Origin: Clostridia bacterium
GTDB lineage: Bacteria > Bacillota > Clostridia > UBA1381
Assembly (NCBI GenBank): GCA_017404065.1
Contig: JAFRDB010000128.1
Span: 63-64,062, forward strand
DNA length: 64,000 bases
Reading direction: 5' to 3'
Shown here one piece after another: positions 3,656 through 63,847 of the stretch; position 1 is the first letter of the stretch; every line of letters starts with the position of its first letter. Below the pieces are notes generated by a model. It was not told the origin of the DNA, made no database searches, and worked only from the letters and a program-made list of their open reading frames with translations. The position numbers were made by a program, and so were the translations under genes.

Positions 3656-3701
3656 TATACTCCTTCCAAATTTGTGATCATTAAATCCTTCACAAAACCT
3701 A

Positions 3702-4020
3702 AGTTTGAGAGAAAATCGCTCCTGTCAGCAGTTTTGCTATGCAAAACCGGGCTACGCCCGCCCGACATCTTTCGGGTGCTAATTGTGCGTCTAACCGAAC
3801 GAGTCTGTATGTTTATACGCGAGTGAGGGCAGACGTGCGAGATGGTGAGCAACACGCTTGCGTGTTGCAGGCGTTCAGTAGACTTGCTACGCAAGTCCGG
3901 GGCTATGCCCCGCCTGACTTCTTTCAGGTACCTGTTGCGTAGCAACCAGGATGCCAGGTCGTGCAGGTCGCAGAGCGACCGACCAGACAAACGCCGTAGC
4001 TAAACGATTTTATCCAAACT
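3702..4020. mobile_element. MITE-like element copy D (variant termini), flanked by TA/TA
   Basis: Termini are AGTTTGAGAGAAAATCG (3702-) and CGATTTTATCCAAACT (-4020), which are inverted repeats. TA lies at 3700-3701 and 4021-4022. The interior is GC-rich and packed with hairpins (GCAACACGC-TT-GCGTGTTGC 3849-3868; CGGGGC-TAT-GCCCCG; GGTCG-CAGAG-CGACC). It shares the blocks ACACGCTTGCGTGT and ACAAACGCCGTAGCTAAA with copies A and B. Confidence 0.55.
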
Positions 4021-4433
4021 TATACGACCCGGTGACCCAAGCCTATTACTACATCGTTCAGGTTCAAAAGTCCTACCGTAAAGAAAAGACCGACGGAAAT
4101 ATGCTCTCTGCCGCGGGCAATGCCTATTTTGCCGCCGAGGTTGAGCCCGATGCTTTTACCGATGACCTGCTGTATCGCCTCGTGCGCCGCTCCTGCGACC
4201 GCGCCCTCCTCAGCATGGCTGCCGTTGATAACACCCTCGCGCCGCGCCGCGACTACAGCACGTTCAAGTATTTTGGGGATCGCGTTCGAAAAATCGCTGC
4301 CGAAATCCACAGCTGCCGCGCGTATATTCGACGCATCAAGCCTGTCCTTTATATCATTTTCTTCATCTCGCGTGCTGCTCATTGCCATACTGAGCGCCGC
4401 CTTGCAAACCACCTTGCTGCTTATCTCTTCCAT
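4020..4433 (-). CDS. HutP-family protein (putative RNA-binding regulator)
   Basis: 137 aa. The segments ARREGVINGSHAEEGAVAGAAHEAI..., IGIARGREHISVGLFFTVGLL and IGLGHRVV align by eye with B. subtilis HutP (KKSGVIQSEGYRESHALYHATMEAL, LRFAVLRG, WIAVSLYGTIG, FGVGINHI). There are no hut genes nearby. Confidence 0.5.
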   Translation of the reverse strand: MEEISSKVVCKAALSMAMSSTRDEENDIKDRLDASNIRAAAVDFGSDFSNAIPKILERAVVAARREGVINGSHAEEGAVAGAAHEAIQQVIGKSIGLNLGGKIGIARGREHISVGLFFTVGLLNLNDVVIGLGHRVV

Positions 4434-19090: not shown

Positions 19091-19299
19091 AATTTCAGTT
19101 TAACTCCCTCAGTCTCACTCCGTTCGACAGCTCCCTCATAGAGGGAGCCAAGTGTTTCGGGCTTACCACACATTCTTGCCTCCCTCTTGAGGTAAACGAA
19201 ACGCTTGCGTTTCGTAGGCGTGTTGCATAGCAACAAACGCCGTAGCTAAAAGGTGGCAGCCCGTAAGGGCTGACGGAGGGAGTCCGATAAACTCAAACT
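19091..19299. mobile_element. MITE-like element copy A (right terminus degenerate)
   Basis: The left end TA|AATTTCAGTTTAACTCCCTCAGTC is identical to copy B. The interior is collinear with copy B (48052-48261) apart from scattered substitutions. The right end ...GACGGAGGGAGTCCGATAAACTCAAACT has diverged. It sits in the 3' UTR of hisIE, upstream of the terminator at 19399. Confidence 0.6.
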
Positions 19300-23138: not shown

Positions 23139-23230
23139 GAATATGTTTAGACTTGGTTTTTGAATGAGTGTATTTCAGTTTATCGGGTTGTCAACTCCCC
23201 CGCCCCGCTTAGCTCATTCTTTTATTATGC

Positions 23231-30139: not shown

Positions 30140-30389
30140 AATTTCAGTTTGTCGGGAGAGATTAGCGGGCGGCGCAGCCTGTCCTTGCCCTGGGGCAAGG
30201 TGGGCTTTTCAAGCTTCGCTTGAAAAGGTCGGATTGGAGTTCACGGCACTAAAAAATGAGATAAATTAGCGGCTTTAGATAAAATCTATCTCTGCCGTAG
30301 CCCCCAACCCGCCTCGCAAGCTCGGCACCCTGCCCCAAGGCAGGGACAGCAGAGCTACACCGCAAACATCAGTCCGACAAACTGAAATT
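30140..30389. mobile_element. MITE-like element copy C (same termini as A/B, different palindromic core), flanked by TA/TA
   Basis: 16-bp perfect terminal inverted repeat AATTTCAGTTTGTCGG (30140-) / CCGACAAACTGAAATT (-30389). TA lies at 30138-39 and 30390-91. The interior forms long complementary arms (CTGTCCTTGCCCTGGGGCAAGGTG ... CACCCTGCCCCAAGGCAGGGACAG). Confidence 0.6.
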
Positions 30390-33288: not shown

Positions 33289-35403
33289 TTAGTTCGTATA
33301 TGAGAGGAAGTACTGGTAGATGATACATGCAGCCTGAGCTCTTGTTGCAGTCTCCTGCGGAGCAAATCTGCCATCATCCATACCGTTGATTACGCTTGCA
33401 GCGCTGAGAACATTAACAGCCTCTACAGCATAACCACTGATCGTATAAGCATCTGTGAACGATGCCGGAGCGCTTGATGTCTTAAGCGTGATGTTCTTAA
33501 TAGTTATAGCTCTGTACATCATCGCTGCCATCTGCTCGCGCGTTATAAGTGCATTCGGATCAAATTCCGTATCCGATACACCCATTACTATACCTGTTGC
33601 CGCTGCTGCCTCTACGTAGCCATAGAACCAATCTGTCGGAGCAACATCAGTAAATGTCGGTGCTGCAGGGTTCTTCTCACCTATACCAAATGTAATACAT
33701 ACCATCTTAGCAAACTGAGCTCTTGTTACCGGTGCAAGCGGCTCAAATGTTGTATCTGATGTGCCGTTTACTATACCGTTGCCTGCAAGAGTGTTTATAG
33801 CAGGTAATGCCCACGGAACACTGTCAAGGTCTGTGAAGTTTGCAGCCGGTGTAGTTACTTGTGATCCTGCCACACCTGAAGTTGAGCTGCCGCTTGCGAT
33901 TGTTGAACCGCCGTGGCTGCCGCCGCCACCGCCGCCTGAAGGTCTTGATGTCGGTCTTGCTGTCGGTGTTGCTGTCGGTCTTGCTGTCGGTGCAACTGTC
34001 GGTGCAGCTGTCGGTGCAACAAAGTCTACCGAAGTAACATCCTCAGGCTGAAGCTGGTTATCGCCTGTCATATATGCAGCACCCATCGATACTTTTGTTC
34101 CGTTCATACCCTTGATAACGAGCTTATTGATGATATCGTTTACAACGTCATCCACATAAGCTGTTCCATCAGGTTTGAGACCACTCTGTATATTCTCGAA
34201 CTCTTCTTCTGTGAGCTCCTTGCCGTCAAGGAATGCTGCATAATCTTCACCATACTTAGCATCTGCACCATTCTTTGTAACCTTTACATATACACCCGCC
34301 GGTGTCTTGCCTGAAGGTACACTGACGATATCTGATACCGCCACCTCGTTGTCACCGGTGAATGCCGGTACCTCTGTCGGAGCCTGTGTCGGAGCTTCTG
34401 TTGCAGTTGCCCATGCAGGGATCATTACCCAACCAAGATCTGCTGTACTCTTTGTGCTTGATATCGACTTGAAGTTTCCGTCCGTGATCTGAACCTTTGT
34501 CTGTTCGATCTTGAACGCACCTGTACCAGCCGGTACTGTGATCTTATATGTAGCAAGCAGCTTATCCTCTGTTGTTGAACCTGATGTGTTCGAGAAGTTG
34601 AAGTTTACAACACCTTCTGAAAGCTTATCAGTATTTATCGTCGGACTTGACTGTATAGCTACATCTACCTCTGCCGCTGTTGCAGTTGTAATGCCCATCT
34701 GCAGATTTACTGCTGCGCCAGAAACAGAATCAACGCCTACATAGTAAGCCTTTACTACCTTCTCAGTCTCTGTACTGTTGTCAGCATCATATACAAGCTG
34801 TACACCTGCGTTTACAACTGAAGGTGTAGCTGTCGGCTCAGGAGCCTCTGTTGCATTCGGATCTGTCCACTTCGGAACTGTCAGAGTCATAAGCTGAGCC
34901 GTGCTCTTTGTGCTTGATATCGACTTGAAGTTTCCATCTGTGATCTGAACCTTTGTCTGCTCTACTGTGAACTCATCCGTACCAGCCGGTACTGTGATCT
35001 TATATGTAGCAAGCAGCTTATCCTCTGTTGTTGAACCTGATGTGTTCGAGAAGTTGAAGTTTACAACACCTTCTGAAAGCTTATCAGTATTTACCGTCGG
35101 ACTTGACTTTATGGCTACATCCACCTCTGCCGCTGTTGCAGTTGTGATGCTCATCTGCAGATTTACTGCTGCGCCCGAAACCGAATCAACGCCTACATAG
35201 TAAGCCTTGATTACCTTCTCCGTGTCTGTACTGTTATCCTCATCGTATACCAGTTTAACACCTGACGTGACTTCTTCTACAGTCTCAGCGGTTACAAGCA
35301 ATTCTTCGTTATCGGCATTGGCAAATACGCCTGTCATGCCGGTACCGATCGATGCCGCAACCGATAAGGCTGCAATAAAAGCAACTATCTTATTTCTTTT
35401 CAT
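33289..35403 (-). CDS. Cell-wall-anchored surface protein: signal peptide, two tandem cohesin-like modules, middle domain, Pro/Thr + Gly-rich linker, three C-terminal SLH domains
   Basis: ATG 35403 (MKRNKIVAFIAALSVAASIG) has an AAAGGAAGGA RBS. The SLH triplet is FTDLDSVPWALPAINTLAGNGIVNG, FTDVAPTDWFYGYVEAAAATGIVMG and FTDAYTISGYAVEAVNVLSAASVING. The repeat modules contain GAAVNLQM...VVNFNFSNTSGSTTEDKLLATYKITVPAGT, which is cohesin-like (tentative). Confidence 0.7.
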   Translation of the reverse strand: MKRNKIVAFIAALSVAASIGTGMTGVFANADNEELLVTAETVEEVTSGVKLVYDEDNSTDTEKVIKAYYVGVDSVSGAAVNLQMSITTATAAEVDVAIKSSPTVNTDKLSEGVVNFNFSNTSGSTTEDKLLATYKITVPAGTDEFTVEQTKVQITDGNFKSISSTKSTAQLMTLTVPKWTDPNATEAPEPTATPSVVNAGVQLVYDADNSTETEKVVKAYYVGVDSVSGAAVNLQMGITTATAAEVDVAIQSSPTINTDKLSEGVVNFNFSNTSGSTTEDKLLATYKITVPAGTGAFKIEQTKVQITDGNFKSISSTKSTADLGWVMIPAWATATEAPTQAPTEVPAFTGDNEVAVSDIVSVPSGKTPAGVYVKVTKNGADAKYGEDYAAFLDGKELTEEEFENIQSGLKPDGTAYVDDVVNDIINKLVIKGMNGTKVSMGAAYMTGDNQLQPEDVTSVDFVAPTAAPTVAPTARPTATPTARPTSRPSGGGGGGSHGGSTIASGSSTSGVAGSQVTTPAANFTDLDSVPWALPAINTLAGNGIVNGTSDTTFEPLAPVTRAQFAKMVCITFGIGEKNPAAPTFTDVAPTDWFYGYVEAAAATGIVMGVSDTEFDPNALITREQMAAMMYRAITIKNITLKTSSAPASFTDAYTISGYAVEAVNVLSAASVINGMDDGRFAPQETATRAQAACIIYQYFLSYTN
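34350..35259. repeat. 2 x 456-bp near-identical tandem duplication inside the SLH protein gene
   Basis: The antisense track ORFs 34511-34744 and 34967-35200 are almost the same 77-aa string. The protein repeats are VKLVYDEDNSTDTEKVIKAYYVGVDSVSGAAVNLQM... and VQLVYDADNSTETEKVVKAYYVGVDSVSGAAVNLQM... Confidence 0.85.
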
Positions 35404-35450
35404 TTTGCATTTATCCTTCCTTTGATTTTTTTGGAAAAATCCCATAACTT

Positions 35451-35506: not shown

Positions 35507-36166
35507 TTATTCAACAACTATATCAATTGTAGAACCTGTGTTACCGATATTCTCTTCGAATTCAGCTATATATCTTGCAATGAAAACGCCATCCGATACG
35601 CCAACTTCCTGGTCATCATCAACGTCACCATAGACGAAATCAGCATCATCAGCTGTCTTAGCCTCTGCACCCGCATTACCGATATTCTCTTCAAATTCAG
35701 CTATATATCTTGCAACAAATACACCGTCCGATACACCGATCTCATCGTCATCATCAACGTCACCGATGTAAACAGTCTTTGTGTCCTTCTCGACCGGCTC
35801 GCCGCCTATAGTAAATGAAGCTGTCTTAACTGTGCCGTCGCCGCCGACACGGATATAATATGTACCGTCAACTATCTTGGATGCATCAAGCTTGATCTCG
35901 CTAAAGCCTTGGCTCTCATCATCCTGATCGATCTGGAAAATGTTAGCTTCTGCAACTGTGCCGTCTGTATCTACAACAAGCAGAGTCGTTGAATTCTCGG
36001 TTGACTTTACAGCACTATCAAGAGTGATAACACCGGTATCTGTGTCATACTTACCTGCAAAATCGCCGGAAACAGAAACCTCAGCTGCCATAGCGGAGAT
36101 AGCCATTGCTGCCGAAACAGCTGTTATAGCCGCTGTTGACAGCATGATTTTTGTGAATTTCTTCAT
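35507..36166 (-). CDS. Small secreted protein with C-terminal atypical (poly-Asp loop) dockerin
   Basis: ATG 36166 (MKKFTKIMLSTAAITAVSAAMAISAMA). The C-terminus holds two 24-residue segments, GDVDDDDEIGVSDGVFVARYIAEF and GDVDDDQEVGVSDGVFIARYIAEF, 46 aa apart. This matches the duplicated F-hand layout of dockerins (GD.N.DG.....D......Y). Confidence 0.6.
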   Translation of the reverse strand: MKKFTKIMLSTAAITAVSAAMAISAMAAEVSVSGDFAGKYDTDTGVITLDSAVKSTENSTTLLVVDTDGTVAEANIFQIDQDDESQGFSEIKLDASKIVDGTYYIRVGGDGTVKTASFTIGGEPVEKDTKTVYIGDVDDDDEIGVSDGVFVARYIAEFEENIGNAGAEAKTADDADFVYGDVDDDQEVGVSDGVFIARYIAEFEENIGNTGSTIDIVVE

Positions 36167-36265
36167 TGTTTTACCCCTTTTCTTTTTAGACTTGATTATG
36201 ATCTGCGAATATGCCAAAATTGCGGACCGTGGCACACTACGCAAATACTATATCCATATACCCGT

Positions 36266-44309: not shown

Positions 44310-44466
44310 AATTTTTTCACCTCCTGATGTGATTGATTATGACCGTATAAAAGACCCCGTATATGCAGACATACGGGGTCGTAAAATTCTTTTTGAATTT
44401 ATACCTCGGTGGGACTTACGGATCGCTCCTGCCGACTGTCTACGGTCTGTTTATTTCAACCTCAAT
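44310..44466 (-). ncRNA. rplJL 5' leader (probable L10-leader-type autoregulatory attenuator)
   Basis: A 157-nt leader lies between the promoter (44467-44495) and the rplJ ATG. It contains an intrinsic terminator, GACCCCGUAU-loop-AUACGGGGUC + UUUUAU (44347-44380), about 40 nt before the RBS. The L10 leader is an established cis-regulator in Firmicutes, but I have not matched the consensus structure. Confidence 0.45.
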
Positions 44467-47036: not shown

Positions 47037-47158
47037 GAACTTTTTTTAAAATATTTATTTTTGTTTATAAAAAGTTTAAAACTTTCTTATATAATGTTTA
47101 TCAGATAAGGATATTATGGTAATGTAACGTTACAATATATATGAAAGGACAGATATTT

Positions 47159-48052
47159 ATGAAGAACAAAAAGCTTATTCCCGTAATATGCTTCGCTTTG
47201 GGGACATGCATGCTCGCAGCAGGCGCAGCGGCGGGATATAAGACTGCGAACGGATATGACGCGCTGAAAAAATCTATGCTTGCAACGCGCGAGCTTACAA
47301 ACTGCACATTTAACATGGATACAAAAATAAGCTTCGACGGGAAAGAGATAGTGAACGGTCAAACGATTTGGGAGGGTGATCTTGATAATAAAATGCTCCA
47401 CTCAAAAAACACCTACGATTACAACGGTGTAAGCTCTTGTGACGAATACTATCACTACAACGACACGATGTATCGTTTGGAACAGAATGATGTATATATC
47501 AAACAAAATGATTATACATGGTATTACGAAAATCCATGGGGCATCAGCGAGGATGACGCGCCCACCGTTGATAAGGTCTTGACTTTTTTGGAGCTCGCCG
47601 CAGATACGGTCGTGGGCGACCTGCGCAACAACTTCACCTGCACAGCGGACGAGGATGACTATACCTCATACCGCGTATCGCTTGACAGTGTTCAGATACC
47701 GGAGATAATAAACGCAGGCTTGGGTGTTATTTTTGCCATTTCAAACGACACCGTCAATTATGCGTCCGTCACAGACGAAAACGGCAACGAATACGATATT
47801 TCCGAAGACGAGGATAACATGAATTACTATACCGCGCGGATGGGTAACGATCCGGTAGTAGACAGTGTAGCTCTTGACTACACACTTGGTAAGGACGGCT
47901 CATTCCGTGACGGAACGGCTGTTGTGATATTTAAGGGCGAGGGACACGAGATAAGATTCGATATTTCCGCAAGCCTTGACAGCATCGGCACGACGCATAT
48001 TACGACACTCGAGGATCAGGGCGCAGAGATAAAGGAATATCAAAAACCGTAA
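47159..48052 (+). CDS. Hypothetical secreted/lipoprotein, first gene of the ABC/two-component module. The stop codon is created at the MITE junction.
   Basis: ATG 47159 (MKNKKLIPVICFALGTCMLAAG) has AAAGGA 9 nt upstream. There is a signal peptide with Cys. No family was recognised. Confidence 0.55.
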   Translation: MKNKKLIPVICFALGTCMLAAGAAAGYKTANGYDALKKSMLATRELTNCTFNMDTKISFDGKEIVNGQTIWEGDLDNKMLHSKNTYDYNGVSSCDEYYHYNDTMYRLEQNDVYIKQNDYTWYYENPWGISEDDAPTVDKVLTFLELAADTVVGDLRNNFTCTADEDDYTSYRVSLDSVQIPEIINAGLGVIFAISNDTVNYASVTDENGNEYDISEDEDNMNYYTARMGNDPVVDSVALDYTLGKDGSFRDGTAVVIFKGEGHEIRFDISASLDSIGTTHITTLEDQGAEIKEYQKP

Positions 48053-48261
48053 ATTTCAGTTTAACTCCCTCAGTCACGCCTGTCGGCGCGACAGCTCCCT
48101 CATAGAGGGAGCCAAGTGTTTCGGGCTACCACAATTCTTGCCTCCCTCTTGAGGTGAGCGACACGCTTGCGTGTCGTAGGCGTGTTGCACAGCAACAAAC
48201 GCCGTAGCTAAAGGGTGGCAGCCCGTAAGGGCTGACGGAGGGAGTCCACTAAACTGAAATT
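48052..48261. mobile_element. MITE-like element copy B, flanked by TA/TA
   Basis: Terminal inverted repeats are AATTTCAGTTTAACTCCCTCAGTC (48052-) and GACGGAGGGAGTCCACTAAACTGAAATT (-48261). TA lies at 48050-51 and 48262-63. The internal hairpins are CTCCCTC-ATA-GAGGGAG, CGACACGC-TT-GCGTGTCG, GTTGC-ACA-GCAAC and CAGCCC-GTAA-GGGCTG. Confidence 0.7.
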
Positions 48262-48284
48262 TACTCTCAAAGGAGAAATATACA

Positions 48285-48998
48285 ATGATAGAGATCAAAT
48301 CACTCACCAAGCTATACAAGAACAAACGCGGTATCCGCGGCATCTCGCTTGATATCCGGGACGGAGAAATCCTCGGTCTGCTCGGGCCGAACGGATCGGG
48401 CAAAACAACGCTTATGAAGGCGTTGCTTTCGCTCGTGCCCGACTACAGCGGAGATATAATCGTTGACGGGAACGATCTGCGCGACGATCTTGAGAATGTC
48501 CTTGCGCGTACAGGCGCGCTCATTGAAGCTCCGTCCGTATACAAGCGGCTCACGGCATATCAAAATCTGTGTCTTGCCGCACGGCGGCAGGAGGATACGG
48601 AGGATATTGACCGTGTGCTGGATATTGTGGGGCTCTCCCAATATAAGAATGAGAGAGCCGGACATTTTTCACTCGGCATGAAGCAACGGTTAGGCATAGC
48701 CGCTGCTGTCCTCGGCACGCCCGATATTATTGTGCTTGATGAGCCTACAAACGGGCTTGATATCGAGTCTGTCGTGGAGCTTAGAGAATACATACACAAG
48801 CTTAACCGCGAGAACGGCACGACCTTTATCATCTCAGGTCATATAGCGTCCGAGATAGAAAAGCTCTGTACACGCGCCGCCGTTATTTACGAGGGTGAGA
48901 TAATAGCTAATGAGAGCATCGAAAAGATATTATCGCTCTACCCGTCAATGGAGGAGTTCTTTTTAAACAAGGTGCGCGAGAGGAGGGGCAGTATATGA
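48285..48998 (+). CDS. ABC transporter ATP-binding protein (ABC-2/antimicrobial-peptide-export type)
   Basis: Walker A GPNGSGKTT, signature FSLGMKQRL, Walker B IIVLDEPTNGLD. Confidence 0.9.
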   Translation: MIEIKSLTKLYKNKRGIRGISLDIRDGEILGLLGPNGSGKTTLMKALLSLVPDYSGDIIVDGNDLRDDLENVLARTGALIEAPSVYKRLTAYQNLCLAARRQEDTEDIDRVLDIVGLSQYKNERAGHFSLGMKQRLGIAAAVLGTPDIIVLDEPTNGLDIESVVELREYIHKLNRENGTTFIISGHIASEIEKLCTRAAVIYEGEIIANESIEKILSLYPSMEEFFLNKVRERRGSI

Positions 48999-55042: not shown

Positions 55043-58000
55043 ATGAACAAAAAGATTTTAGCAATACTGCTGAGCCTTGCGATGCCAGGCTCTGCGGTAA
55101 ATTTCCCTGTTTTTGCAGAGAACGATGAAACGGAAGCAGCGGAGGTAACGGTTGCATCCGAGGTGACGGACGCAACAGAGGAAACAGAGTCCGATGCCGA
55201 GGCTGAGGAAGCGTTGGCGATTGCCGGCGAGGTGACGGAGGTCGCAAGCGGCACCTGCGGCGTGGAAGAAAACAAGGATAACGTCACATGGCTCCTTGAC
55301 AGCGAGGGCACGCTGACGGTAAGCGGTACCGGTGATATGGCGAATGAGTATTATCCTTGGTTAGATTACAGAGACCAAATAACAAAGGTCATTGTCACCG
55401 ATGGAGTCACAAGAGTAGGTAGCCATGCGTTTTCTTATTACAAGTATATTAGTAGTGGTAATCAGCCTAGATATTATTACCCCAACTTAAGAACATTGAT
55501 CCTATCGGACAGTGTACAATCAATAGGAGCTGAAGCTTTTAGGGGCTCCGGACTGTTGAATGTGGAGCTGGGAAACGGACTGGTCACAATAGAAGACGGA
55601 GCATTTTGCGTCTGTTCCCTGTTGCAGAGTGTGAACCTTCCCGATACTCTCAAGACTATTAGAAATTATGTATTTGAAGACTGTTCCTCTCTAAAAGAAG
55701 TAGACATACCCGATTCCGTAACTTCGTTAGGTAATTATTTATTCCGAAGCTGTATCGCGCTTGAAAGCGTTAAGCTACCGAATAAAATAATAACAGTTCC
55801 GGAAAGCTCATTCCAAAACTGCGTCAACCTCATCAGTATCGGTATACCTGCAAATGTAAGCGTTATAGGCAATTACGCATTTTCCGGGTGCACAAAACTT
55901 GAAACCGCAAATATACCGGTATACGTCAGAGCTATAGGAAGCTATGCCTTTTCCGGCTGCTCTGCACTTACAAACATCACGATTCCGAACCATGTTAAGG
56001 CTATAGGCGACCACGCCTTTGAAAACTGCGTGTCCGCCGAAAGCATCACACTCGGAAATGACGTGAGAACCATAGAGCCGTACGCATTTGACGGAGATGT
56101 AAATGTAAAAACGCTGTATCTGCCGGAATATTTGACATCGGTAGGTGATAGAGCGTTTTACAATAACAGCAGTCTCGAAAAGATATATTTTGCCGGAAGC
56201 GCAGAGCAATGGAATAATATAAGTGTGGGCGCGAACAACATGTATTTTTCATTCTGTGAGGATATAGAATATAATTCGGATTATTACTGGGAGGATGTAA
56301 TACCGGAGGAGCCCACAGACGCTGAAATTATCGCAAGCGGCACCTGCGGCAGCGAAGGGTCAAATGTCAAGTGGTCGCTCGATGATTACGGAAAGCTGAC
56401 GATAAGCGGCAAATGGGATATGGCGGATGAATATTCCCCTTGGTTAGATTACAGAGACCAAATAACAAAGGTCATTGTCACCGATGGAGTCACAAAAGTA
56501 GGTAACCATGCGTTTTCTTACTACAAGTATATTAGTAGTGGTAATCAGCCTAGATATTATTACCCCAACTTAAGAACATTGATCCTATCGGACAGCGTAC
56601 AATCAATAGGAGCTGAAGCTTTTAGGGGCTCGGGACTGTTGAATGTGGAGCTGGGAAACGGACTGACATCAATAGAAGCAGGAGCATTTTGCGTCTGTTC
56701 CCTGTTGCAGAGTGTGAACCTTCCCGATACACTCAAGACTATTGGAAATAATGTATTTGACACCTGTTCTTCTCTAAGAGAAGCAGAGATACCCGATTCC
56801 GTAACTTCGATAGGTAATTATTTATTCTCCGGCTGTACTTCGCTTGAAAGCGTTAAGCTACCGAATAAAATAATAACAGTTCCGGAATATATCTTTTTCG
56901 GCTGTGTCAATCTCGTCAGCATAGATATACCTTCAAATGTAAGCGTCATAGGCGATTACGCATTTTCCGGGTGCTCAAAACTTGAAACCGCAAACATACC
57001 GGAATCTGTAACATCGATAGGCGGATATGCATTCAACGGCTGTTCGAAGCTTAAGTCTGTAAATATCCCCGAATCGGTAACATCAATAGGAGAATATGCC
57101 TTTAACGGCTGTTCCAAGCTCGGAAGCATCACTGTTCCCGACTATGTAACATCCATACCTGCATACGCCTTTAGCGAATGCTCGGAGCTGGAAAGAGTCA
57201 TAATCGGTGAGAATACAGCAAGCATAGGATACAGCGCGTTTTATAATGATGCAAAATTAAGCGGTCTGTATATTCCTGTTAAGGTGACAAGCATAGGTTC
57301 CAACGCGTTTTATAATGCGGAAAGCCTTGAAAAGATATATTACGGCGGAACGGAAGAACAGTGGAACGCAATAAACATAGGCAGCAACAATAATTATCTG
57401 AAGTATGCCGAAGTTATATACGGCGCATCGCCTGAGGATGTGCCGGAAGTTGTACAACCCACACCGACAGCAGAGCCCACAACGGCACCTACGGCAACGC
57501 CGACAGCGACGCCTACAACAGCTCCAACGGCAACGCCGACAGCAGTGCCTACAGAAGCTCCGACGTCAGCACCGACAACGGCTCCGACAGCGACGCCTAC
57601 GGTACCTCCCGCAACGGACGGGGCTAAGATCAAGGTGTCATCCGCCAAGGTAGCTCCGGGCAAAACAGTTTCCGTTACGGTCGAGCTTTCGGAGAACAAG
57701 GGCTTTGCAAATCTCGGCTTACAGATAGGCTTTGATGCTTCCGCCCTTACGCTTATATCGGTATCAAATAATACAAGCGTAGGCGCGACATATACGGGAG
57801 CGCAGAGTATAACGGTAAATCCGTACAATATGGGATGGGACAGCACGAGCAACAATACATACAACGGTACTCTTGCAACGCTTACCTTCGAGGTGAACGA
57901 TGACGCTCCTGACGGCACATATCCTATCAGCGTAAGCTATTACAGGGGCAAAAACGGAAATTACTCGGACGGCGAGGACGTAAACTATGACGAGGATTTC

Positions 58001-58243
58001 AAGCCACTTAACCTGAATTACACAAACGGAGCTATAACCGTTTCAAGACACATACCCGGCGATATTAACGGCGACGGGAAGGTGAACAATCAGGACGGAA
58101 CGTTCCTGCTTCGTCATCTCGCCGGATGGAATGTCAGTGTTGATGAAACGGCTCTTGATATAACCGGTGACGACAAGGTAAACAACCAGGACGGAACCAT
58201 ACTTCTACGCTATCTCGCCGGTTGGTCGGTAACCATCAACTAA
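55043..58243 (+). CDS. 1066-aa secreted adaptor-scaffoldin-like protein: two BspA-type leucine-rich-repeat blocks, Thr/Pro linker, one cohesin, C-terminal dockerin
   Basis: Signal peptide MNKKILAILLSLAMPGSAVNFPVFA. The LRR_5-like units repeat the pattern IP..V..IG..AF..C..L..... about 20 times. The linker is PTPTAEPTTAPTATPTATP... The cohesin is KVAPGKTVSVTVELSENKGFANLGLQIGFDASALTL...GTLATLTFEV (about 57620-58045). The dockerin is GDINGDGKVNNQDGTFLLRHLAGW...DITGDDKVNNQDGTILLRYLAGW (58052-58240). Confidence 0.75.
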   Translation: MNKKILAILLSLAMPGSAVNFPVFAENDETEAAEVTVASEVTDATEETESDAEAEEALAIAGEVTEVASGTCGVEENKDNVTWLLDSEGTLTVSGTGDMANEYYPWLDYRDQITKVIVTDGVTRVGSHAFSYYKYISSGNQPRYYYPNLRTLILSDSVQSIGAEAFRGSGLLNVELGNGLVTIEDGAFCVCSLLQSVNLPDTLKTIRNYVFEDCSSLKEVDIPDSVTSLGNYLFRSCIALESVKLPNKIITVPESSFQNCVNLISIGIPANVSVIGNYAFSGCTKLETANIPVYVRAIGSYAFSGCSALTNITIPNHVKAIGDHAFENCVSAESITLGNDVRTIEPYAFDGDVNVKTLYLPEYLTSVGDRAFYNNSSLEKIYFAGSAEQWNNISVGANNMYFSFCEDIEYNSDYYWEDVIPEEPTDAEIIASGTCGSEGSNVKWSLDDYGKLTISGKWDMADEYSPWLDYRDQITKVIVTDGVTKVGNHAFSYYKYISSGNQPRYYYPNLRTLILSDSVQSIGAEAFRGSGLLNVELGNGLTSIEAGAFCVCSLLQSVNLPDTLKTIGNNVFDTCSSLREAEIPDSVTSIGNYLFSGCTSLESVKLPNKIITVPEYIFFGCVNLVSIDIPSNVSVIGDYAFSGCSKLETANIPESVTSIGGYAFNGCSKLKSVNIPESVTSIGEYAFNGCSKLGSITVPDYVTSIPAYAFSECSELERVIIGENTASIGYSAFYNDAKLSGLYIPVKVTSIGSNAFYNAESLEKIYYGGTEEQWNAINIGSNNNYLKYAEVIYGASPEDVPEVVQPTPTAEPTTAPTATPTATPTTAPTATPTAVPTEAPTSAPTTAPTATPTVPPATDGAKIKVSSAKVAPGKTVSVTVELSENKGFANLGLQIGFDASALTLISVSNNTSVGATYTGAQSITVNPYNMGWDSTSNNTYNGTLATLTFEVNDDAPDGTYPISVSYYRGKNGNYSDGEDVNYDEDFKPLNLNYTNGAITVSRHIPGDINGDGKVNNQDGTFLLRHLAGWNVSVDETALDITGDDKVNNQDGTILLRYLAGWSVTIN
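55355..56748. repeat. Intragenic duplication (offset 1083 bp) with a ~310-bp almost identical tract
   Basis: 55355-55665 and 56438-56748 differ at only a handful of positions by eye (CCTTGGTTAGATTACAGAGACCAAATAACAAAGGTCATTGTCACCGATGGAGTCACAA...). The flanking parts of the two LRR blocks are much more diverged. Confidence 0.85.
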
Positions 58244-58252
58244 GGAGGTCGT

Positions 58253-59563
58253 ATGAAAAGGACGATCTCGATCGGCGTGATATGCGCCATACTGCTTTCT
58301 GTTTGCGGTTTTAGTGTGAATGCCGCAGGGATGACCGTCAGCGCAGGAAATGAATCCTGCGCCGCCGGCGGGTCGGTTTCGATACCGATAACGCTTGCGG
58401 GCAATACGGGCTTTGCAAATCTCGGCATAGAGGTAGAATATGACAGCTCGGTATTAACACTTAAAAACGTCACAGCCGGCGACACGGGCGCAACCTATAC
58501 GGCGGCGCAGAGCATAACGGCAAATCCGTATAACATGGGCTGGGACAGCACAAGCGATAACAGCTTTAACGGCACTCTTGCAACGCTTGAATTTGATGTG
58601 TCGGATACCGCTTCGGGCAATTATCCCATACAGATAAGCTATTATAAGGGACGTGACGGCAGCTACGAGGACGGCTCGGATGTCAACTATGACGAGAATT
58701 TCTCCCCGCTTGGTCTCTCGTATAAGAACGGCTCTATCACCGTCAGCGGCAGCCCGACTGCTTCACCAACCGCTTCACCGACCACTGAGCCAACAATTAT
58801 GCCAACCGCTTCACCGACCGCTGAGCCTACCACTGAGCCTACCGCCAAGCCTTCGGGAGCGATTATAAAGGCGGGTGCGGTCTCCGGCTTTGTCGGGGAC
58901 ACTGTAGCTGTTCCGATAACGCTCACAAGCAACACCGGCTTTGCCAACCTCGGAATAGAGGTCGGTTATGACAGCAGCGTTATGACATTAAAAAAAGCCG
59001 AGTCAGCACAGACCGGCGCGACTTATACGGCGGCGCAGAGCATCACGGCAAACCCGTACAACATGGGCTGGGACAGCACAAGCAATAATACATATAACGG
59101 CACTCTTGCAACGCTTGAATTCGAGATAGCGGGAGATGCAACTTCGGGAATCTACCCGATAACGGTCAGCTATTATAAGGGACGTGACGGTAATTATTCG
59201 GACGGCACTGATGTAAACTATGATGAGAACTTCGCTCCGCTTAATCTTTCATACGTTGCCGGCTATGTGACTATATCCGACACAGAAGCATCCGGAAAGA
59301 GCATTTCAATCAGCAACGTTCAAAATGACGGGATTCTTTCCTTTAATGCAACCCTGAAGTCGGATGAAAGCATTACGGGAGTCGCAATAGCGGCGGTATA
59401 TGACGCAGACGGTACGCTCATTGCCGTAAAACAATACACCGCCTCATCGGAAATAGCGTTCTCATTCTCTGATATTCAAAACGCCGCAATGGTTAAGGTG
59501 TTCTGGTGGGGCAGCATGAACGGTATGTCGTCTCAGGCGTATTCAGAGAAAATCACATTGTAA
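58253..59563 (+). CDS. 436-aa secreted scaffoldin-like protein: cohesin - Pro/Thr linker - cohesin - 92-aa C-terminal module
   Basis: Signal peptide MKRTISIGVICAILLSVCGFSVNA. Two cohesins are paralogous to the one in the upstream gene (GNTGFANLGIEVEYDSSVLTL...NPYNMGWDSTS...GTLATLEFDV; SNTGFANLGIEVGYDSSVMTL...). GGAGG RBS. Confidence 0.75.
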   Translation: MKRTISIGVICAILLSVCGFSVNAAGMTVSAGNESCAAGGSVSIPITLAGNTGFANLGIEVEYDSSVLTLKNVTAGDTGATYTAAQSITANPYNMGWDSTSDNSFNGTLATLEFDVSDTASGNYPIQISYYKGRDGSYEDGSDVNYDENFSPLGLSYKNGSITVSGSPTASPTASPTTEPTIMPTASPTAEPTTEPTAKPSGAIIKAGAVSGFVGDTVAVPITLTSNTGFANLGIEVGYDSSVMTLKKAESAQTGATYTAAQSITANPYNMGWDSTSNNTYNGTLATLEFEIAGDATSGIYPITVSYYKGRDGNYSDGTDVNYDENFAPLNLSYVAGYVTISDTEASGKSISISNVQNDGILSFNATLKSDESITGVAIAAVYDADGTLIAVKQYTASSEIAFSFSDIQNAAMVKVFWWGSMNGMSSQAYSEKITL

Positions 59564-59602
59564 ATACTGTTTTAACAATAAAATACATATGAGGGGTAAA
59601 AT

Positions 59603-62600
59603 ATGCTTAGAAAAAGAATTTCGGCCGCTTTAGCGGCTATTATAACGCTGGCATCCTGCGGAACAGCATTTGCGGTTTATGATGCGGATGTTATTCCCGT
59701 ACAAACGGAGATACAGGATGAACTTAGTATTGCGGAGTCACGACCGCAGACATCAAAATTCAGCTACAATCTTGACGGTGAGGAGCTTACTGTATCGCTC
59801 AACGGTCAGACAATAAAGAACACTACCGATGAGGACATAAACGTTTTTATTGCCGTTTATGAGGCTGATATCCTCTGTAAAGCTAAGCGCTATACTGTAA
59901 GCGCGGATTATCCGGAGGTCAACTTAAAGGATTGGAAGACCACGTATTCCGGTGACAAGGACGCGCTTAAGGTAAAGGCGTTCATCTGGACGGCGGACGG
60001 TAATTGCAAACCGATCGAGGAAGCATCCGAGCTTTCTGATATTTCGGGGACAGTTTACAAAGCGTTCGGCAGAGTGGTCGCCACGTCAACAGGCAGTAAC
60101 CTGCGACCGGGTGAGGTCATGTTCCAAATAGAACAGTCGGATGATTTTGACGGCAGGGAGATAAACAAAAGTCTCGATAATATAGAAACTATAACTGCTC
60201 AGACAGGAAGCACAAACGCAAAGGATATGCTGTTTATCTACTCCGAAGCATTTATTGCAAAGGCTGTTGACGGTACATTCGCGATAGTTTCCATAGAGAG
60301 CTGCGATCCGTCACAGACAGTCACGTTTGCGGCAAAGGATGTTGCCGATGATGACGCGATCATCGGCATAGACTACAGCGGCAACAGAAAGCTACCGGTA
60401 TACGAGAGCGATATATCATCGTCAACAATAAAATATGATCTTGCTGACGATGTTAAGCTCTATGTAAACGGCGTTGAAGATATGACATCAGCTTCTCTGA
60501 ATGAAAAGATCGCTGACTACATTCTTGCTAACCCAACAGGTGCGGTTCAGCTCATTGACCAGACAGCTGTCGGTTCAACATCAAAAGACGGTAAGTATGA
60601 CAAGATCATGGTTACATTCTATGTTGACGCTGTAGTTGACTATGTAACCGCAACATCATCAACGGCAAGAATCTATTTCAAGAACTCACAGATCAACGCC
60701 ATGAGAATGGAGTGGGATCCTGAGGATAAGGATATCGAGGTTAAGTTCACAAAGGACGGCGCTGAGATAGCTTACACAGACCTTGCTGAGTATGACGTTC
60801 TTTCGATCAAGTACAACATGGTTGAACAAGGCGTAGCAAGTGACGCTCTTACAGATTGTGACTTCTATGAGGTATTGGTTTCACGGAATGTTGTTGAGGG
60901 CAGCATAATAGGTAAGGATTTTTACGATCAAACTGTTAAGGTTAACGGTAACGACTATAACCTCATATACAATGACGGCGTATACAGCACAAAGACATGG
61001 TCAATGACAAGCACATACGATTGTGAGCTTGGCACATATTATAAGCTCTTCCTTGATGCTTTCGGTTATGTTGCACATTTCGACGAGCTTGAATTGCCGA
61101 AGGACTACGGCGTGATCGTTGCTATGTACACAAACAGCGGCGATGATTATCCGACAGTAAGACTTGTTACCGCTGACGGTGAGATCGTAAGCTATGAGTG
61201 TACGGATTCTTTGGAGGCTCACAGGTTCTATAACTATGCAGTAAACGGCAATCCTTACGGTTCGGCATCTTACACATCGTTCAACAAGAACACCCCGGCT
61301 GTAAAGGACAACATACTTGCAGGTAACACAGTCTGCACATATAAGCTCACAGATGGCAAGATCAGGTTTGATCAGGCATTTAATACCGGCTACGGCGGCG
61401 CAGACCTTGAATATAAAGCATCTTCTTCTAAAATAGGATCATATTCAATTGATGAAAACACAAGGATCATTGATATGGACGAATATATGCATAACGGTTC
61501 TGACAAAGTCTTAACGCTTTCTGCTGCCGATTTTGATGATAAGGCTGCATATACAGCATACTTGTTTGACAAGAACAGTGACGGTGTTTACAGATTCGCT
61601 ATCGTATTTCATGGAGCCGTAGAAGGTATCTATGATGTTTACGGACAGGTTACCGACAACGCGCAAACAAGCTCAGACTATAAAGAAGACGAGATAGGTT
61701 TTGAAATAACAGATGATGATGAGCTTAACGGTAAGCATACAATGAATGTTGGAAAAACCGATGCGGCGGATATAATTGGCAAGTATTGTGAAGCAACGAT
61801 CATGGTGATGAAAAACGGTCGCATTAAGATCTTATCAATATCGCCCGAAGAAACAAATTACGGCGTGATTGTATCAATGTATCAGACCAGCGGCGATGAC
61901 TATCCCACGGTAAGACTTGTTACCGCTGACGGTGAGATCGTAAGCTATGAGTGTAAGGATATGACCGAGGCTACGATGTTCTATAACTATGCAGTAAACG
62001 GCAATCCTTACGGTTCGGCATCTTACACATCGTTCAACAAGAACGTTCCTACTGTAATGGACAACATTCTTGCAGGTAACACGGTCTGCACATATAAGCT
62101 CACAAACGGCAGGATCAGGTTCGATAATTCACTTTACGACAACGGCGGCACAGATCTTGAATATAAGGCATCGACATCGGAAATAGGCGCCTTCGCCATT
62201 GATGAAAACACAAGGATCATCGATATGGACGAGTATATGCATAACGGTTCTGACAAGGTCTCAACGCTTTCGGCTGCAGATTTTGAGGATGAGGCTGCAT
62301 ACACAGCATACTTGTTCGACAAGAACACCGACGGTGTTTACAGATTCGCTATCGTATTTCATGGAGCCGTAGAAGGTATCTATGACGTTTACGGACAGGT
62401 TACCGACAACGCGCAAACAAGCTCAAATTATAAAGAAGACGAGATAGGTTTTGAAATAACAGATGATGATGAGCTTAACGGTAAGCATACAATGAACGTC
62501 GGAAATACCGATGCGGCGGATATGATTGGCAAATATTGTGAAGCAACGATCCTGGTGATGAAAAACGGTCGCATTAAGATCTTATCAATATCGCCCGAAG

Positions 62601-63847
62601 AAACAAATTACGGTGTGATCGTTGCTATGTACAAAAGCAGCGGCGATGACTATCCCACGGTAAGACTTGTTACCGCAAACGGTGAGATTGTAAGCTATGA
62701 GTGTAAGGATATGACCGAAGCTAATAGGCTCTATAACTATGCTGTAAGCGGCAATCCTTACGGTTCGGCATCTTACACATCGTTCAACAAATACACCCCG
62801 ACGGTAAAGGCCAACATTCTTGCAGGCGACACAGTCTGCACATATAAGCTCGCAGACGGCAGAATCAGGTTCGATAATGCACTTTACGGCAACGGCGGTA
62901 CGGATCTTGAATATAATGCATCGACATCGGAAATAGGCGCATTTACCATTGACGAAAACACAAGGATCATCGATATGGACGAATATATGCATAACGGTTC
63001 TGACAAAGTCCCAACGCTTTCGGCTGCTGATTTTGAGGATGAGGCAATATACGATGCGTATTTCTTTGATAAGAACAATGACAGTGTTTACAATTTTGGT
63101 ATCGTATTTGAGGGCACATCGTCCATAAGACCCGAGAGCCGGCTTGCAGTTGTTAAGAAGGTAAACGGTCAGGCAGACACAAATGGTACAACAACATGGT
63201 CATACACGGTTCTTCGCGCAGGTGAGGAGGTTGAGGTTCGTATAGACGATTCCACAGCTCTGCTTCCTGAGGGTGCTGTAATTGCTTACATAGTTAACTC
63301 AGACGGTTATGTTGACAGCGATAGGCTGTATGTTCTCTACGAACCGGCATCAACATACTATTATAACCTTGAAACGATCCTTTCAAACAATGATTTCTGC
63401 GGCAGCCAGCTTGACAATGTTAATATGGTCACTGATTGGAACAAGAATCATGGCAAGTATGAGATCGCATACAATGGCAGGACATCATATTCAAAGGACG
63501 TATTTGCCTATGTGGGTATCGTATACAAGACGAACGGCAATCACCTTGAACTCTTCACAAAGAAGACCGGCAATGTATCAAGCACATTGACAGACATTGA
63601 GGATATCTCGCTTTCAGGCGCTACAGTATATCTGTATGACTATAACTATAAGTCAGGCAAGGGCGCAAGAGTAAGCGTTGCTACAGCTACTCAGAGCGAT
63701 TCTATCTACAACGTCACGTATGATGACGCTGACAAGACTCAGGTCAACTGGTATAAGGTAATCGATAATGATGCTACGCCTTTGCTCGCTTTCGTTAAGG
63801 AGGTTGACGGCGAAGCAACAGACGTGATCCTCTTCATTGCTAAGTGA
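59603..63847 (+). CDS. 1414-aa putative lipoprotein with ~250-aa tandem repeats. No recognised catalytic, SLH, LPXTG or dockerin module.
   Basis: The signal peptide carries a lipobox (AIITLASC|G). About 2.7 copies of a 250-aa unit are present (YGVIVAMY..SGDDYPTVRLVTADGEIVSYEC...IRFD...DLEYKAS.S.IG...IDENTRIIDMDEYMHNGSDKV.TLSAADF.D.AAYTAYLFDKN.DGVYRFAIVFHG...). GAGGGG RBS. Confidence 0.6.
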   Translation: MLRKRISAALAAIITLASCGTAFAVYDADVIPVQTEIQDELSIAESRPQTSKFSYNLDGEELTVSLNGQTIKNTTDEDINVFIAVYEADILCKAKRYTVSADYPEVNLKDWKTTYSGDKDALKVKAFIWTADGNCKPIEEASELSDISGTVYKAFGRVVATSTGSNLRPGEVMFQIEQSDDFDGREINKSLDNIETITAQTGSTNAKDMLFIYSEAFIAKAVDGTFAIVSIESCDPSQTVTFAAKDVADDDAIIGIDYSGNRKLPVYESDISSSTIKYDLADDVKLYVNGVEDMTSASLNEKIADYILANPTGAVQLIDQTAVGSTSKDGKYDKIMVTFYVDAVVDYVTATSSTARIYFKNSQINAMRMEWDPEDKDIEVKFTKDGAEIAYTDLAEYDVLSIKYNMVEQGVASDALTDCDFYEVLVSRNVVEGSIIGKDFYDQTVKVNGNDYNLIYNDGVYSTKTWSMTSTYDCELGTYYKLFLDAFGYVAHFDELELPKDYGVIVAMYTNSGDDYPTVRLVTADGEIVSYECTDSLEAHRFYNYAVNGNPYGSASYTSFNKNTPAVKDNILAGNTVCTYKLTDGKIRFDQAFNTGYGGADLEYKASSSKIGSYSIDENTRIIDMDEYMHNGSDKVLTLSAADFDDKAAYTAYLFDKNSDGVYRFAIVFHGAVEGIYDVYGQVTDNAQTSSDYKEDEIGFEITDDDELNGKHTMNVGKTDAADIIGKYCEATIMVMKNGRIKILSISPEETNYGVIVSMYQTSGDDYPTVRLVTADGEIVSYECKDMTEATMFYNYAVNGNPYGSASYTSFNKNVPTVMDNILAGNTVCTYKLTNGRIRFDNSLYDNGGTDLEYKASTSEIGAFAIDENTRIIDMDEYMHNGSDKVSTLSAADFEDEAAYTAYLFDKNTDGVYRFAIVFHGAVEGIYDVYGQVTDNAQTSSNYKEDEIGFEITDDDELNGKHTMNVGNTDAADMIGKYCEATILVMKNGRIKILSISPEETNYGVIVAMYKSSGDDYPTVRLVTANGEIVSYECKDMTEANRLYNYAVSGNPYGSASYTSFNKYTPTVKANILAGDTVCTYKLADGRIRFDNALYGNGGTDLEYNASTSEIGAFTIDENTRIIDMDEYMHNGSDKVPTLSAADFEDEAIYDAYFFDKNNDSVYNFGIVFEGTSSIRPESRLAVVKKVNGQADTNGTTTWSYTVLRAGEEVEVRIDDSTALLPEGAVIAYIVNSDGYVDSDRLYVLYEPASTYYYNLETILSNNDFCGSQLDNVNMVTDWNKNHGKYEIAYNGRTSYSKDVFAYVGIVYKTNGNHLELFTKKTGNVSSTLTDIEDISLSGATVYLYDYNYKSGKGARVSVATATQSDSIYNVTYDDADKTQVNWYKVIDNDATPLLAFVKEVDGEATDVILFIAK
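61106..63120. repeat. ~750-bp tandem repeats (2 full + 1 partial) inside the 1414-aa gene
   Basis: Repeat starts (TACGG[CT]GTGAT) lie at 61106, 61859 and 62609, giving periods of 753 and 750 bp. There are long runs of identical DNA between copies. Confidence 0.9.

Follow-up and report, generated by a model that had tools for sequence, protein, structure and literature searches.

A TA-flanked, MITE-like palindromic repeat on the stop codon of an operon gene in a Clostridia bacterium

The 64 000-nucleotide stretch of DNA analysed here (the window) derives from a Clostridia bacterium (GTDB lineage Bacteria; Bacillota; Clostridia; UBA1381) and corresponds to positions 63–64 062 of the forward strand of contig JAFRDB010000128.1 (GenBank assembly GCA_017404065.1). 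Between a gene of unassigned function and the first gene of an ATP-binding cassette (ABC) transporter operon it contains a 210-bp imperfect palindrome, termed D, which is probably a fixed copy of a non-autonomous, TA-duplicating DNA transposon, i.e. a MITE (miniature inverted-repeat transposable element). The most likely entry point of D is the stop codon of the upstream gene, where it would have been tolerated, and D is now probably a passenger in the operon mRNA. The evidence consists of its terminal inverted repeats (TIRs) and flanking TA dinucleotides, a second copy and related elements in the window, empty sites in sister species and a parallel insertion at the stop codon of hutP. The coordinates of D, its neighbours and the related sites are collected in Table 1.

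The termini of D (AATTTCAGTTTA and TAAACTGAAATT) form a perfect 12-nt inverted repeat that can be extended to ∼26 nt. In the right arm a 4-nt bulge (GTGG) intervenes before the inverted repeat resumes as ACTCCCTC[A/C]GTCA, and 25 of the 26 aligned positions match. Sequences within one mismatch of the terminal 12-mer occur six times in the window, compared with an expectation of 0.43, and none of 100 shuffled sequences reached this number; the repeat is real and not a chance match. As single-stranded RNA, D folds into a long multi-hairpin stem with an energy of −116.5 kcal/mol (z = −9.1). The sole open reading frame (ORF) through the element is a 109-aa minus-strand frame overlapping the ABC gene at its start, and D has no coding capacity for a transposase. 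No promoter-like or terminator-like sites are predicted inside it, and a search of the Rfam 15 covariance models around D, at the gathering threshold and at E ≤ 10, gave a best E value of ≥0.13, far under threshold. Fold asymmetry between the two strands, considered as a sign of a strand-specific RNA gene, was not seen (−112.0 versus −113.5 kcal/mol, with no G-U asymmetry). The sequence bears out a first-pass annotation of the window, which had described D as a 210-bp MITE, present in several copies, with inverted termini extending to ∼26 bp and TA on both sides, and had noted that the left TA and the first A of the element together make up the TAA stop codon of the upstream gene. D is a dispersed, non-coding, MITE-like element, and the final base of the present stop codon does come from it.

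Four copies, A to D, had been listed in the first-pass annotation. Element A is a true copy of D, with 91.9% identity over 198 bp, homology beginning at exactly the same left boundary and three differing positions in the right terminus. Element C has only its 16-nt termini and the TA on both sides in common with D, and lies 24 nt 5′ of the start of a PF06838 gene. The putative copy B is only a 15-of-16 match (blastn-short E = 0.75). It lacks a right end, and its neighbours are a terminator hairpin and the mreB start; B and D had both been placed on stop codons, which is correct for D, while B is not a copy and does not sit on a stop codon. The statement that all four lie between co-directional genes does not hold for A, which is located 65 nt 3′ of hisIE (plus strand) and is followed by ORFs on the minus strand, so that its flanks are convergent. 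A further element of 319 bp, E, was missing from the earlier list and was found in the present analysis; its termini are related to those of D and two internal hairpin modules are common to both. One module common to D, A and E (residing in D at 48153–48183) has the stem arms CGACACGC/GCGTGTCG in D, CGAAACGC/GCGTTTCG in A and CAACACGC/GCGTGTTG in E, and such changes on both sides of the stem could reflect either selection or templated repair within a palindrome. A candidate rule that the elements lie 23–25 nt upstream of start codons was rejected, as E is 45 nt away.

TA is present at seven of the eight ends of D, C, E and A, and the termini follow the pattern TA·A(A/G)TTT(C/G)(A/G)G (the dot marks the element boundary). 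D, C and a C/D-type element on a related contig (L268; see below) have their ends in common and not their interiors. The combination of TIRs, TA flanks, two boundaries shared by A and D, ends shared across unrelated interiors and empty sites in sister species fits a non-autonomous cut-and-paste transposon that duplicates TA. The related termini, TA flanks and different interiors of C and E are expected if the transposase reads the ends only. For D itself, we infer the TA duplication. Among bacterial insertion sequence (IS) families, IS630/Tc1-mariner is marked by a strict duplication of TA, and our leading guess for the mobilizing transposase is an IS630-type DDE enzyme.

Several points weigh against the transposon interpretation. 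Only two near-identical copies, D and A, were seen in the window, and A is followed on the right by CA instead of a clean TA. TA is itself palindromic and may simply belong to the inverted repeat instead of marking a duplication. If D is cut out, TAC is left, which is not a stop codon, so that entry into a stop codon requires one later substitution. Presence/absence polymorphism within the species was not found among the contigs fetched. Finally, neither the window nor 1.9 Mb of fetched loci nor the collection scans yielded a transposase or an autonomous element whose ends match. The first-pass statement that the window lacks a transposase agrees with our scan of ∼27 window ORFs against Pfam, which returned housekeeping genes or no match, and no transposase is found among the annotated genes of the same-species contigs. 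No pairs of termini 80–3000 bp apart, other than those of the known elements, occur in the 1.9 Mb of fetched loci; the IMG/VR scan for both outer termini 180–210 nt apart gave no matches, and neither did a search of the GTDB species representatives with the 20-mer AATTTCAGTTTAACTCCCTC. A scan of the JGI metagenomes for both termini 175–205 nt apart yielded 45 matches, all of which were unrelated AT-rich chance matches and were discarded. A literature search by sequence words returned nothing relevant.

Contigs of the same species were sought by exact-protein look-ups of both flanking genes, of a strain variant and of a hypothetical 311-aa product (see below). All seven (L001–L003, L008–L010 and the strain variant L269) either carry D at the same junction or end inside D. 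No empty D site was found among these fetched contigs, each of which has D in place or breaks within it. The sites of A and C are likewise filled in all other samples; D is fixed in all of the strains sampled. Assemblies that break inside D are typical of repeats. Gene order is unchanged in the two nearest species, at 85–86.5% (L004/L267) and 82–84% (L005/L266) nucleotide identity, but D is missing from the orthologous site, and no sequence of D, A, C or E is present in ∼31 kb of their contigs. The junction in L004 reads ...GAG CCG TAG catttacaaaggagatcgca ATG, with a 20-nt spacer, and that in L005 reads ...GAT TAA gcttttacattgacaggagatcaca ATG, with a 25-nt spacer; GAG CCG TAG in L004 occupies the position equivalent to AAA CCG TA·A in the window. 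These interspecies empty sites are too diverged for the bases of a target duplication at D to be counted.

Fixation in all sampled strains and the very stable fold (z = −9.1) also suit a different explanation, in which D is a selected cis-acting RNA in the operon transcript, e.g. one that acts in RNase III or RNase E processing or in stability and sets the ratio of upstream to downstream expression. Correia elements are RNase III substrates (PMC2229807, PMC10969869), and the stems of D, A and E are kept by changes on both sides. Palindromic DNA, however, can keep its stems without selection at the RNA level, and the two strands of D fold equally well without the G-U asymmetry of a strand-specific RNA. 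Moreover, D has no Rfam match, copy A lies in a convergent intergenic region and the relatives run the same operon without the element. We regard it as highly improbable that D is primarily a selected RNA structure of this kind. Co-transcription of D, and an effect on mRNA processing of the RNase III type by analogy with Correia elements, are plausible.

The first-pass annotation had further proposed that D split a translationally coupled gene pair. Excision in silico of D and one TA gives ...CCG TAC TCT CAA AGG AGA AAT ATA CAA TGA, overlapping the ATG at 48285 (the reconstructed junction can be written as ...CAAAAACCGTA[N]CTCTCAAAGGAG...), and the arithmetic is correct: the upstream frame gains eight codons (YSQRRNIQ) and ends at the TGA of an ATGA overlap. 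On this account, the upstream ORF had run these eight codons further until D landed at the TA within a Tyr codon (TAC), shortening the protein at its C-terminus and ending the coupling of the two genes. Strict excision of a TA duplication yields exactly the overlap sequence, the reconstructed tail has 15 residues after GA[EN], equal to P0002, and a gapless codon alignment places the reconstructed TAC on a Tyr codon that is kept in both relatives (EYQKPY compared with DYWNKY and DYLKKY); on that reading, D would have hit a sense codon. In a MAFFT alignment, the reconstructed CCGTAC instead falls on the stop of L267 (CCGTAG), and on that reading the position of the stop would be native and the C a later change. 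Since the two alignments disagree, alignment does not decide the codon that preceded the insertion. The empty sites do not show the predicted junction, as the ATGA overlap is found in neither relative and both have a stop followed by a 20–25-nt spacer. The hypothetical 311-aa read-through product is absent from a collection of 15 billion proteins, in which all cluster members end in ...QKP, and a frame running open to the TGA of the ATGA would arise by coincidence about one time in four (a rough estimate, not a tool result). The parallel at hutP, described below, undermines the proposal further. An ATGA overlap as the ancestral state is not favoured, and we consider both it and the clipping of a longer upstream protein rather doubtful.

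HutP homologues provide a better-resolved case. Their length is conserved, and all of those examined end in ...GHR[AV]V followed by the stop codon, so that the position of the hutP stop is native, and in the window this stop is completed by the first A of E. The window and the related contigs show three different elements at this stop codon in three related lineages (interiors of ∼105, 319 and >380 nt, with related termini), and the site is empty in a fourth; the site may be either an insertion hot spot or the seat of an old element with turnover of its interior. Comparison of the empty and filled sites indicates that elements of this family enter the TA of native stop codons in tight gene pairs and that the stop is regenerated. 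If E is excised from the window with one TA kept, a TAG stop reappears at the native position. The right-hand TA is followed by G in the window (TAG after excision) and by T in L270 (TAT after excision); this position is evidently free to change after insertion, and the TAC obtained at D is consequently not a reliable guide to the pre-insertion codon, a further point against the clipped Tyr-codon account. By analogy with hutP, insertion of D into a native stop (TAG or TAA) of the upstream gene is a reading that we hold to be about evenly balanced, and it is more probable than the Tyr-codon account.

Table 1. Positions of element D, its neighbours, related elements and hutP sites. Positions refer to the window unless a contig is named; a dot in a sequence marks an element boundary.
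Feature	Position	Strand	Remarks
Element D, non-coding imperfect palindrome (MITE), 210 bp	48052..48261	+	Sequence, fold
Left flanking TA	48050..48051	+	With A48052 forms the TAA stop of the upstream gene
Right flanking TA	48262..48263	+	Putative second copy of the duplicated target
Left TIR of D	48052..48077	+	AATTTCAGTTTA + ACTCCCTCAGTCAC
Right TIR of D	48232..48261	+	TGACGGAGGGAGT + CCAC (bulge) + TAAACTGAAATT
Module M1 in D, ∼45 nt	48065..48113	+	CTCCCTCAGTC-[hairpin]-CAGCTCCCTC-ATA-GAGGGAGCC; the only part of D with relatives outside its lineage
Hairpin module common to D, A and E	48153..48183	+	Stem kept by changes on both sides
Upstream gene, 303 aa, function unassigned	47141..48052	+	N-terminal hydrophobic segment; stop TAA 48050-52
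AGGAG ribosome-binding site of the ABC ATPase gene	48271..48275	+	Intact, 7 nt 3′ of the right-hand TA
ABC transporter ATPase	48285..48998	+	Gene 1 of ABC ATPase, ABC-2 permease, histidine kinase, response regulator
Copy A of the element	19091..19299	+	Left TA 19089-90; right terminus variant TAAACTCAAACT, then CA, then TA
Element C	30140..30389	.	16-nt termini (AATTTCAGTTTGTCGG) as in D, TA both sides, interior unrelated
Element E	3702..4020	.	Termini AGTTTGAGAG... / ...CCAAACT, related to those of D; TA 3700-01 and 4021-22
'Copy B' of the first-pass annotation	23171..23187	+	15/16 match to the left terminus of C; remnant or chance
HutP gene	4023-4433	-	Ends ...GTC GTA TA·A; stop formed by the flanking TA and the A that opens E
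hutP site, window	3700-4022		Element E, 319 bp
hutP site, L268	4424-4807		HutP 92% aa identity, locus 83% nt identity; GTG TG·AATTTCGGTTTG..., C/D-type terminus, then unalignable sequence; contig ends inside
hutP site, L270	1890-2005		HutP 79% aa identity to window; same stop codon holds a ∼105-nt element whose termini are E-like
hutP site, L271	1905-1928		HutP 72% aa identity to window; true empty site, GTA TAA + 14 nt + ATG of a chorismate mutase/cytidylate kinase fusion gene

In the history that we favour, a transposon copy with the family termini would have duplicated its TA target on entering the very short stretch that separates two co-transcribed genes, most likely at the TA within the stop codon of the upstream gene itself. 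With A as the first base of D, the TAA stop would have been regenerated at once. The downstream ribosome-binding site would have been left untouched, allowing the insertion to be tolerated and fixed, and D would now probably be co-transcribed and carried in the operon mRNA as a passenger with strong hairpins.

The interior of D is modular. The only stretch of the element with relatives outside its own lineage, at positions ∼11–65, holds a double-hairpin module, M1, which was followed in a set of loci (L011, L012, L062–L066 and L067–L265). M1 has the general form CTCCCTCAGTC-[variable hairpin]-CAGCTCCCTC-[loop]-GAGGGAGCC and is widespread in MAGs and isolates of Oscillospirales. The M1 pattern was found in 79 IMG/VR stretches and in at least 120 stretches of GTDB genomes; among the matches listed, the GTDB hosts are Oscillospiraceae, Acutalibacteraceae, Ruminococcus, Faecalibacterium, Gemmiger, Intestinimonas, Flintibacter, Monoglobus and two Bifidobacterium species. 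M1 occurs alone, within long ORFs or as the 5′ part of 110–210-nt palindromic elements, and is absent from Rfam. Its first hairpin has at least 117 distinct sequences among the matches listed, and a perfect stem (6–8 bp or longer) is kept by most of these, in contrast to shuffled controls. M1 shows a weak antisense bias (19 versus 8) with respect to the long ORFs that flank it, which is unreliable in GC-rich metagenome-assembled genomes (MAGs). The AATTTCAGTTT terminus stands beside M1 in none of 120 GTDB stretches among the matches listed and in none of the phage-collection and Klebsiella examples read, and no match covering at least 80% of the length of D was found in the phage or plasmid collections. 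On these sequences, D appears to be a 'shell' specific to its lineage with a widely shared module inside, and M1 by itself could represent a new kind of mobile structured unit, of DNA or of RNA.

Such modularity raises the alternative that D is no DDE-type MITE but a REP/BIME-like mosaic. Hairpin modules of the M1 sort would have been assembled and spread either through recombination or through a tyrosine (RAYT/IS200-like) enzyme, with TA...TA simply the outermost palindrome pairs. M1 does occur by itself, as tandem arrays and in numerous unrelated contexts, modules are common to D, A and E despite their differing ends, and the elements at the hutP site combine related ends with interiors (∼105, 319 and >380 nt) that cannot be aligned. 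Against a mosaic, however, the unit common to D and A is the whole 210 bp with like boundaries and 26-nt TIRs, D, C and the L268 element have their ends rather than their interiors in common, and the four intact elements are flanked by TA at all ends except one. REPs are 20–40 nt long and without long TIRs (PMC2817692); M1 taken alone does look REP-like. No RAYT gene was seen in the window. We consider a mosaic origin of D improbable. A broader proposal keeps the transposon reading and extends it: ruminant-gut Oscillospirales would carry an undescribed superfamily of TA-duplicating 'shell' elements whose TA·A ends regenerate stops, which repeatedly colonize native stop-codon TAs in packed operons (D, E, L268 and L270) and whose interiors are exchangeable hairpin modules, including M1. 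At present, this generalization is speculative and we would not expect it to hold in full.

Further observations were made on M1. Two 15-kb viral contigs (L069/L074/L089/L102; IMGVR_UViG_3300010283_000406 and _3300010279_000474) carry up to 15 M1 copies, arranged in head-to-tail and inverted runs of ∼150–160-nt units that each end in ...GGGCGATTTTCATCGCCCCTACGAA, and L093 contains a ∼66-nt tandem M1 array. An M1-type palindrome lies just 5′ of rsmH-tgt-rmtG at ∼2995–3165 of L011 (NZ_CP004000.1, plasmid pKP13f of K. pneumoniae Kp13) and likewise in seven other Klebsiella or Enterobacter plasmids. As M1 is otherwise typical of gut Clostridia, its position hints at the donor lineage of the rmtG region, i.e. 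that this aminoglycoside-resistance region came from gut Clostridia. The widely shared M1 may be a more interesting lead than D itself.

The gene upstream of D had been labelled a lipoprotein, an assignment that was not confirmed: its product has an N-terminal hydrophobic segment and no Pfam match. The NCBI call for this protein starts at Met7 (297 aa), and residues 7–303 match MBQ3427693.1 ('Clostridia bacterium'); identical entries come from ruminant gut metagenomes. Downstream of D, the run of ABC ATPase, permease, histidine kinase and response regulator has the same order in the relatives. The response-regulator gene is followed in the window by a PhdYeFM antitoxin and YoeB toxin pair (51582–∼52200), which is absent at the equivalent place in both relatives (14243–14228 of L266 and 5966–5996 of L267), where other genes follow directly. 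Homologues of the window genes are labelled Clostridia or Oscillospiraceae. Elsewhere in the window, a ribosomal protein L10 leader (RF00557, 54.2 bits; 44340–44463, minus strand) lies 5′ of the rplJ/rplL region and is the only Rfam match at the gathering threshold. The region 55043–63847 contains three very large ORFs (1066, 436 and 1414 aa) with dockerin-like GDxNGDGKVN repeats and Pro/Thr-rich 12-nt tandem repeats, together with internal duplications of 750 and 1083 nt at 86–90% identity, among them 61106–63186, 55280–56662 and 57464–57621. Direct repeats of 300 nt with 92% identity are present at 34435–35190 within a gene for an S-layer-homology protein (33289–35445), and 96-nt direct repeats with 84% identity occur at 35534–35764 in a neighbouring 245-aa ORF (35507–36244) that has no Pfam match.

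MITEs are poorly catalogued in Clostridia, and a 2024 review (PMC10969869) mentions neither Clostridia nor Firmicutes. The family described here explains why assemblies of this species break at these sites, with consequences for the contiguity of MAGs, and it bears on annotation through the placing of gene ends and the calling of false small ORFs. It also illustrates that a TA-targeting element that starts with A can sit on an operon stop codon with neither gene harmed.

Among known systems, the RUP elements of pneumococcus are similar to D in being small, non-coding, TIR-bearing and intergenic, in inserting at TA in a Gram-positive host and in having stops in all frames (PMC2229807). RUP is thought to be mobilized by IS630-Spn1 (PMC2229807). 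It differs from D in its length of 107 bp and its contiguous 9-bp TIRs, which match a known IS, whereas D is 210 bp long and has no sequence similarity to RUP. The Correia (NEMIS) elements of Neisseria are also comparable, with 100–200 bp, TIRs of ∼24 bp, TA termini, frequent co-transcription and a long hairpin (PMC2229807; PMC10969869), which in Neisseria is a substrate of RNase III (PMC2229807; PMC10969869). They belong to another host phylum, differ in sequence and carry promoters and an IHF site, none of which is predicted in D. Their termini differ from those of D, and the resemblance is in mode of action only. The enterobacterial ERIC/IRU and YPAL elements are imperfect palindromes beside gene ends that are co-transcribed with the upstream gene and affect mRNA stability (PMC2229807, PMC10969869); their sequences and hosts are unrelated and their TIRs are short (7 bp). 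The RAYT-associated REP/BIME elements resemble D in their mosaic of GC-rich hairpin modules, and M1 in particular is short, very abundant and found singly or in arrays, but REPs are without long TIRs or target duplications, whereas D appears to have moved as a whole 210-bp unit. The reading of D as a MITE is well supported; its family is new, and its kind, the bacterial MITE, is a known one.

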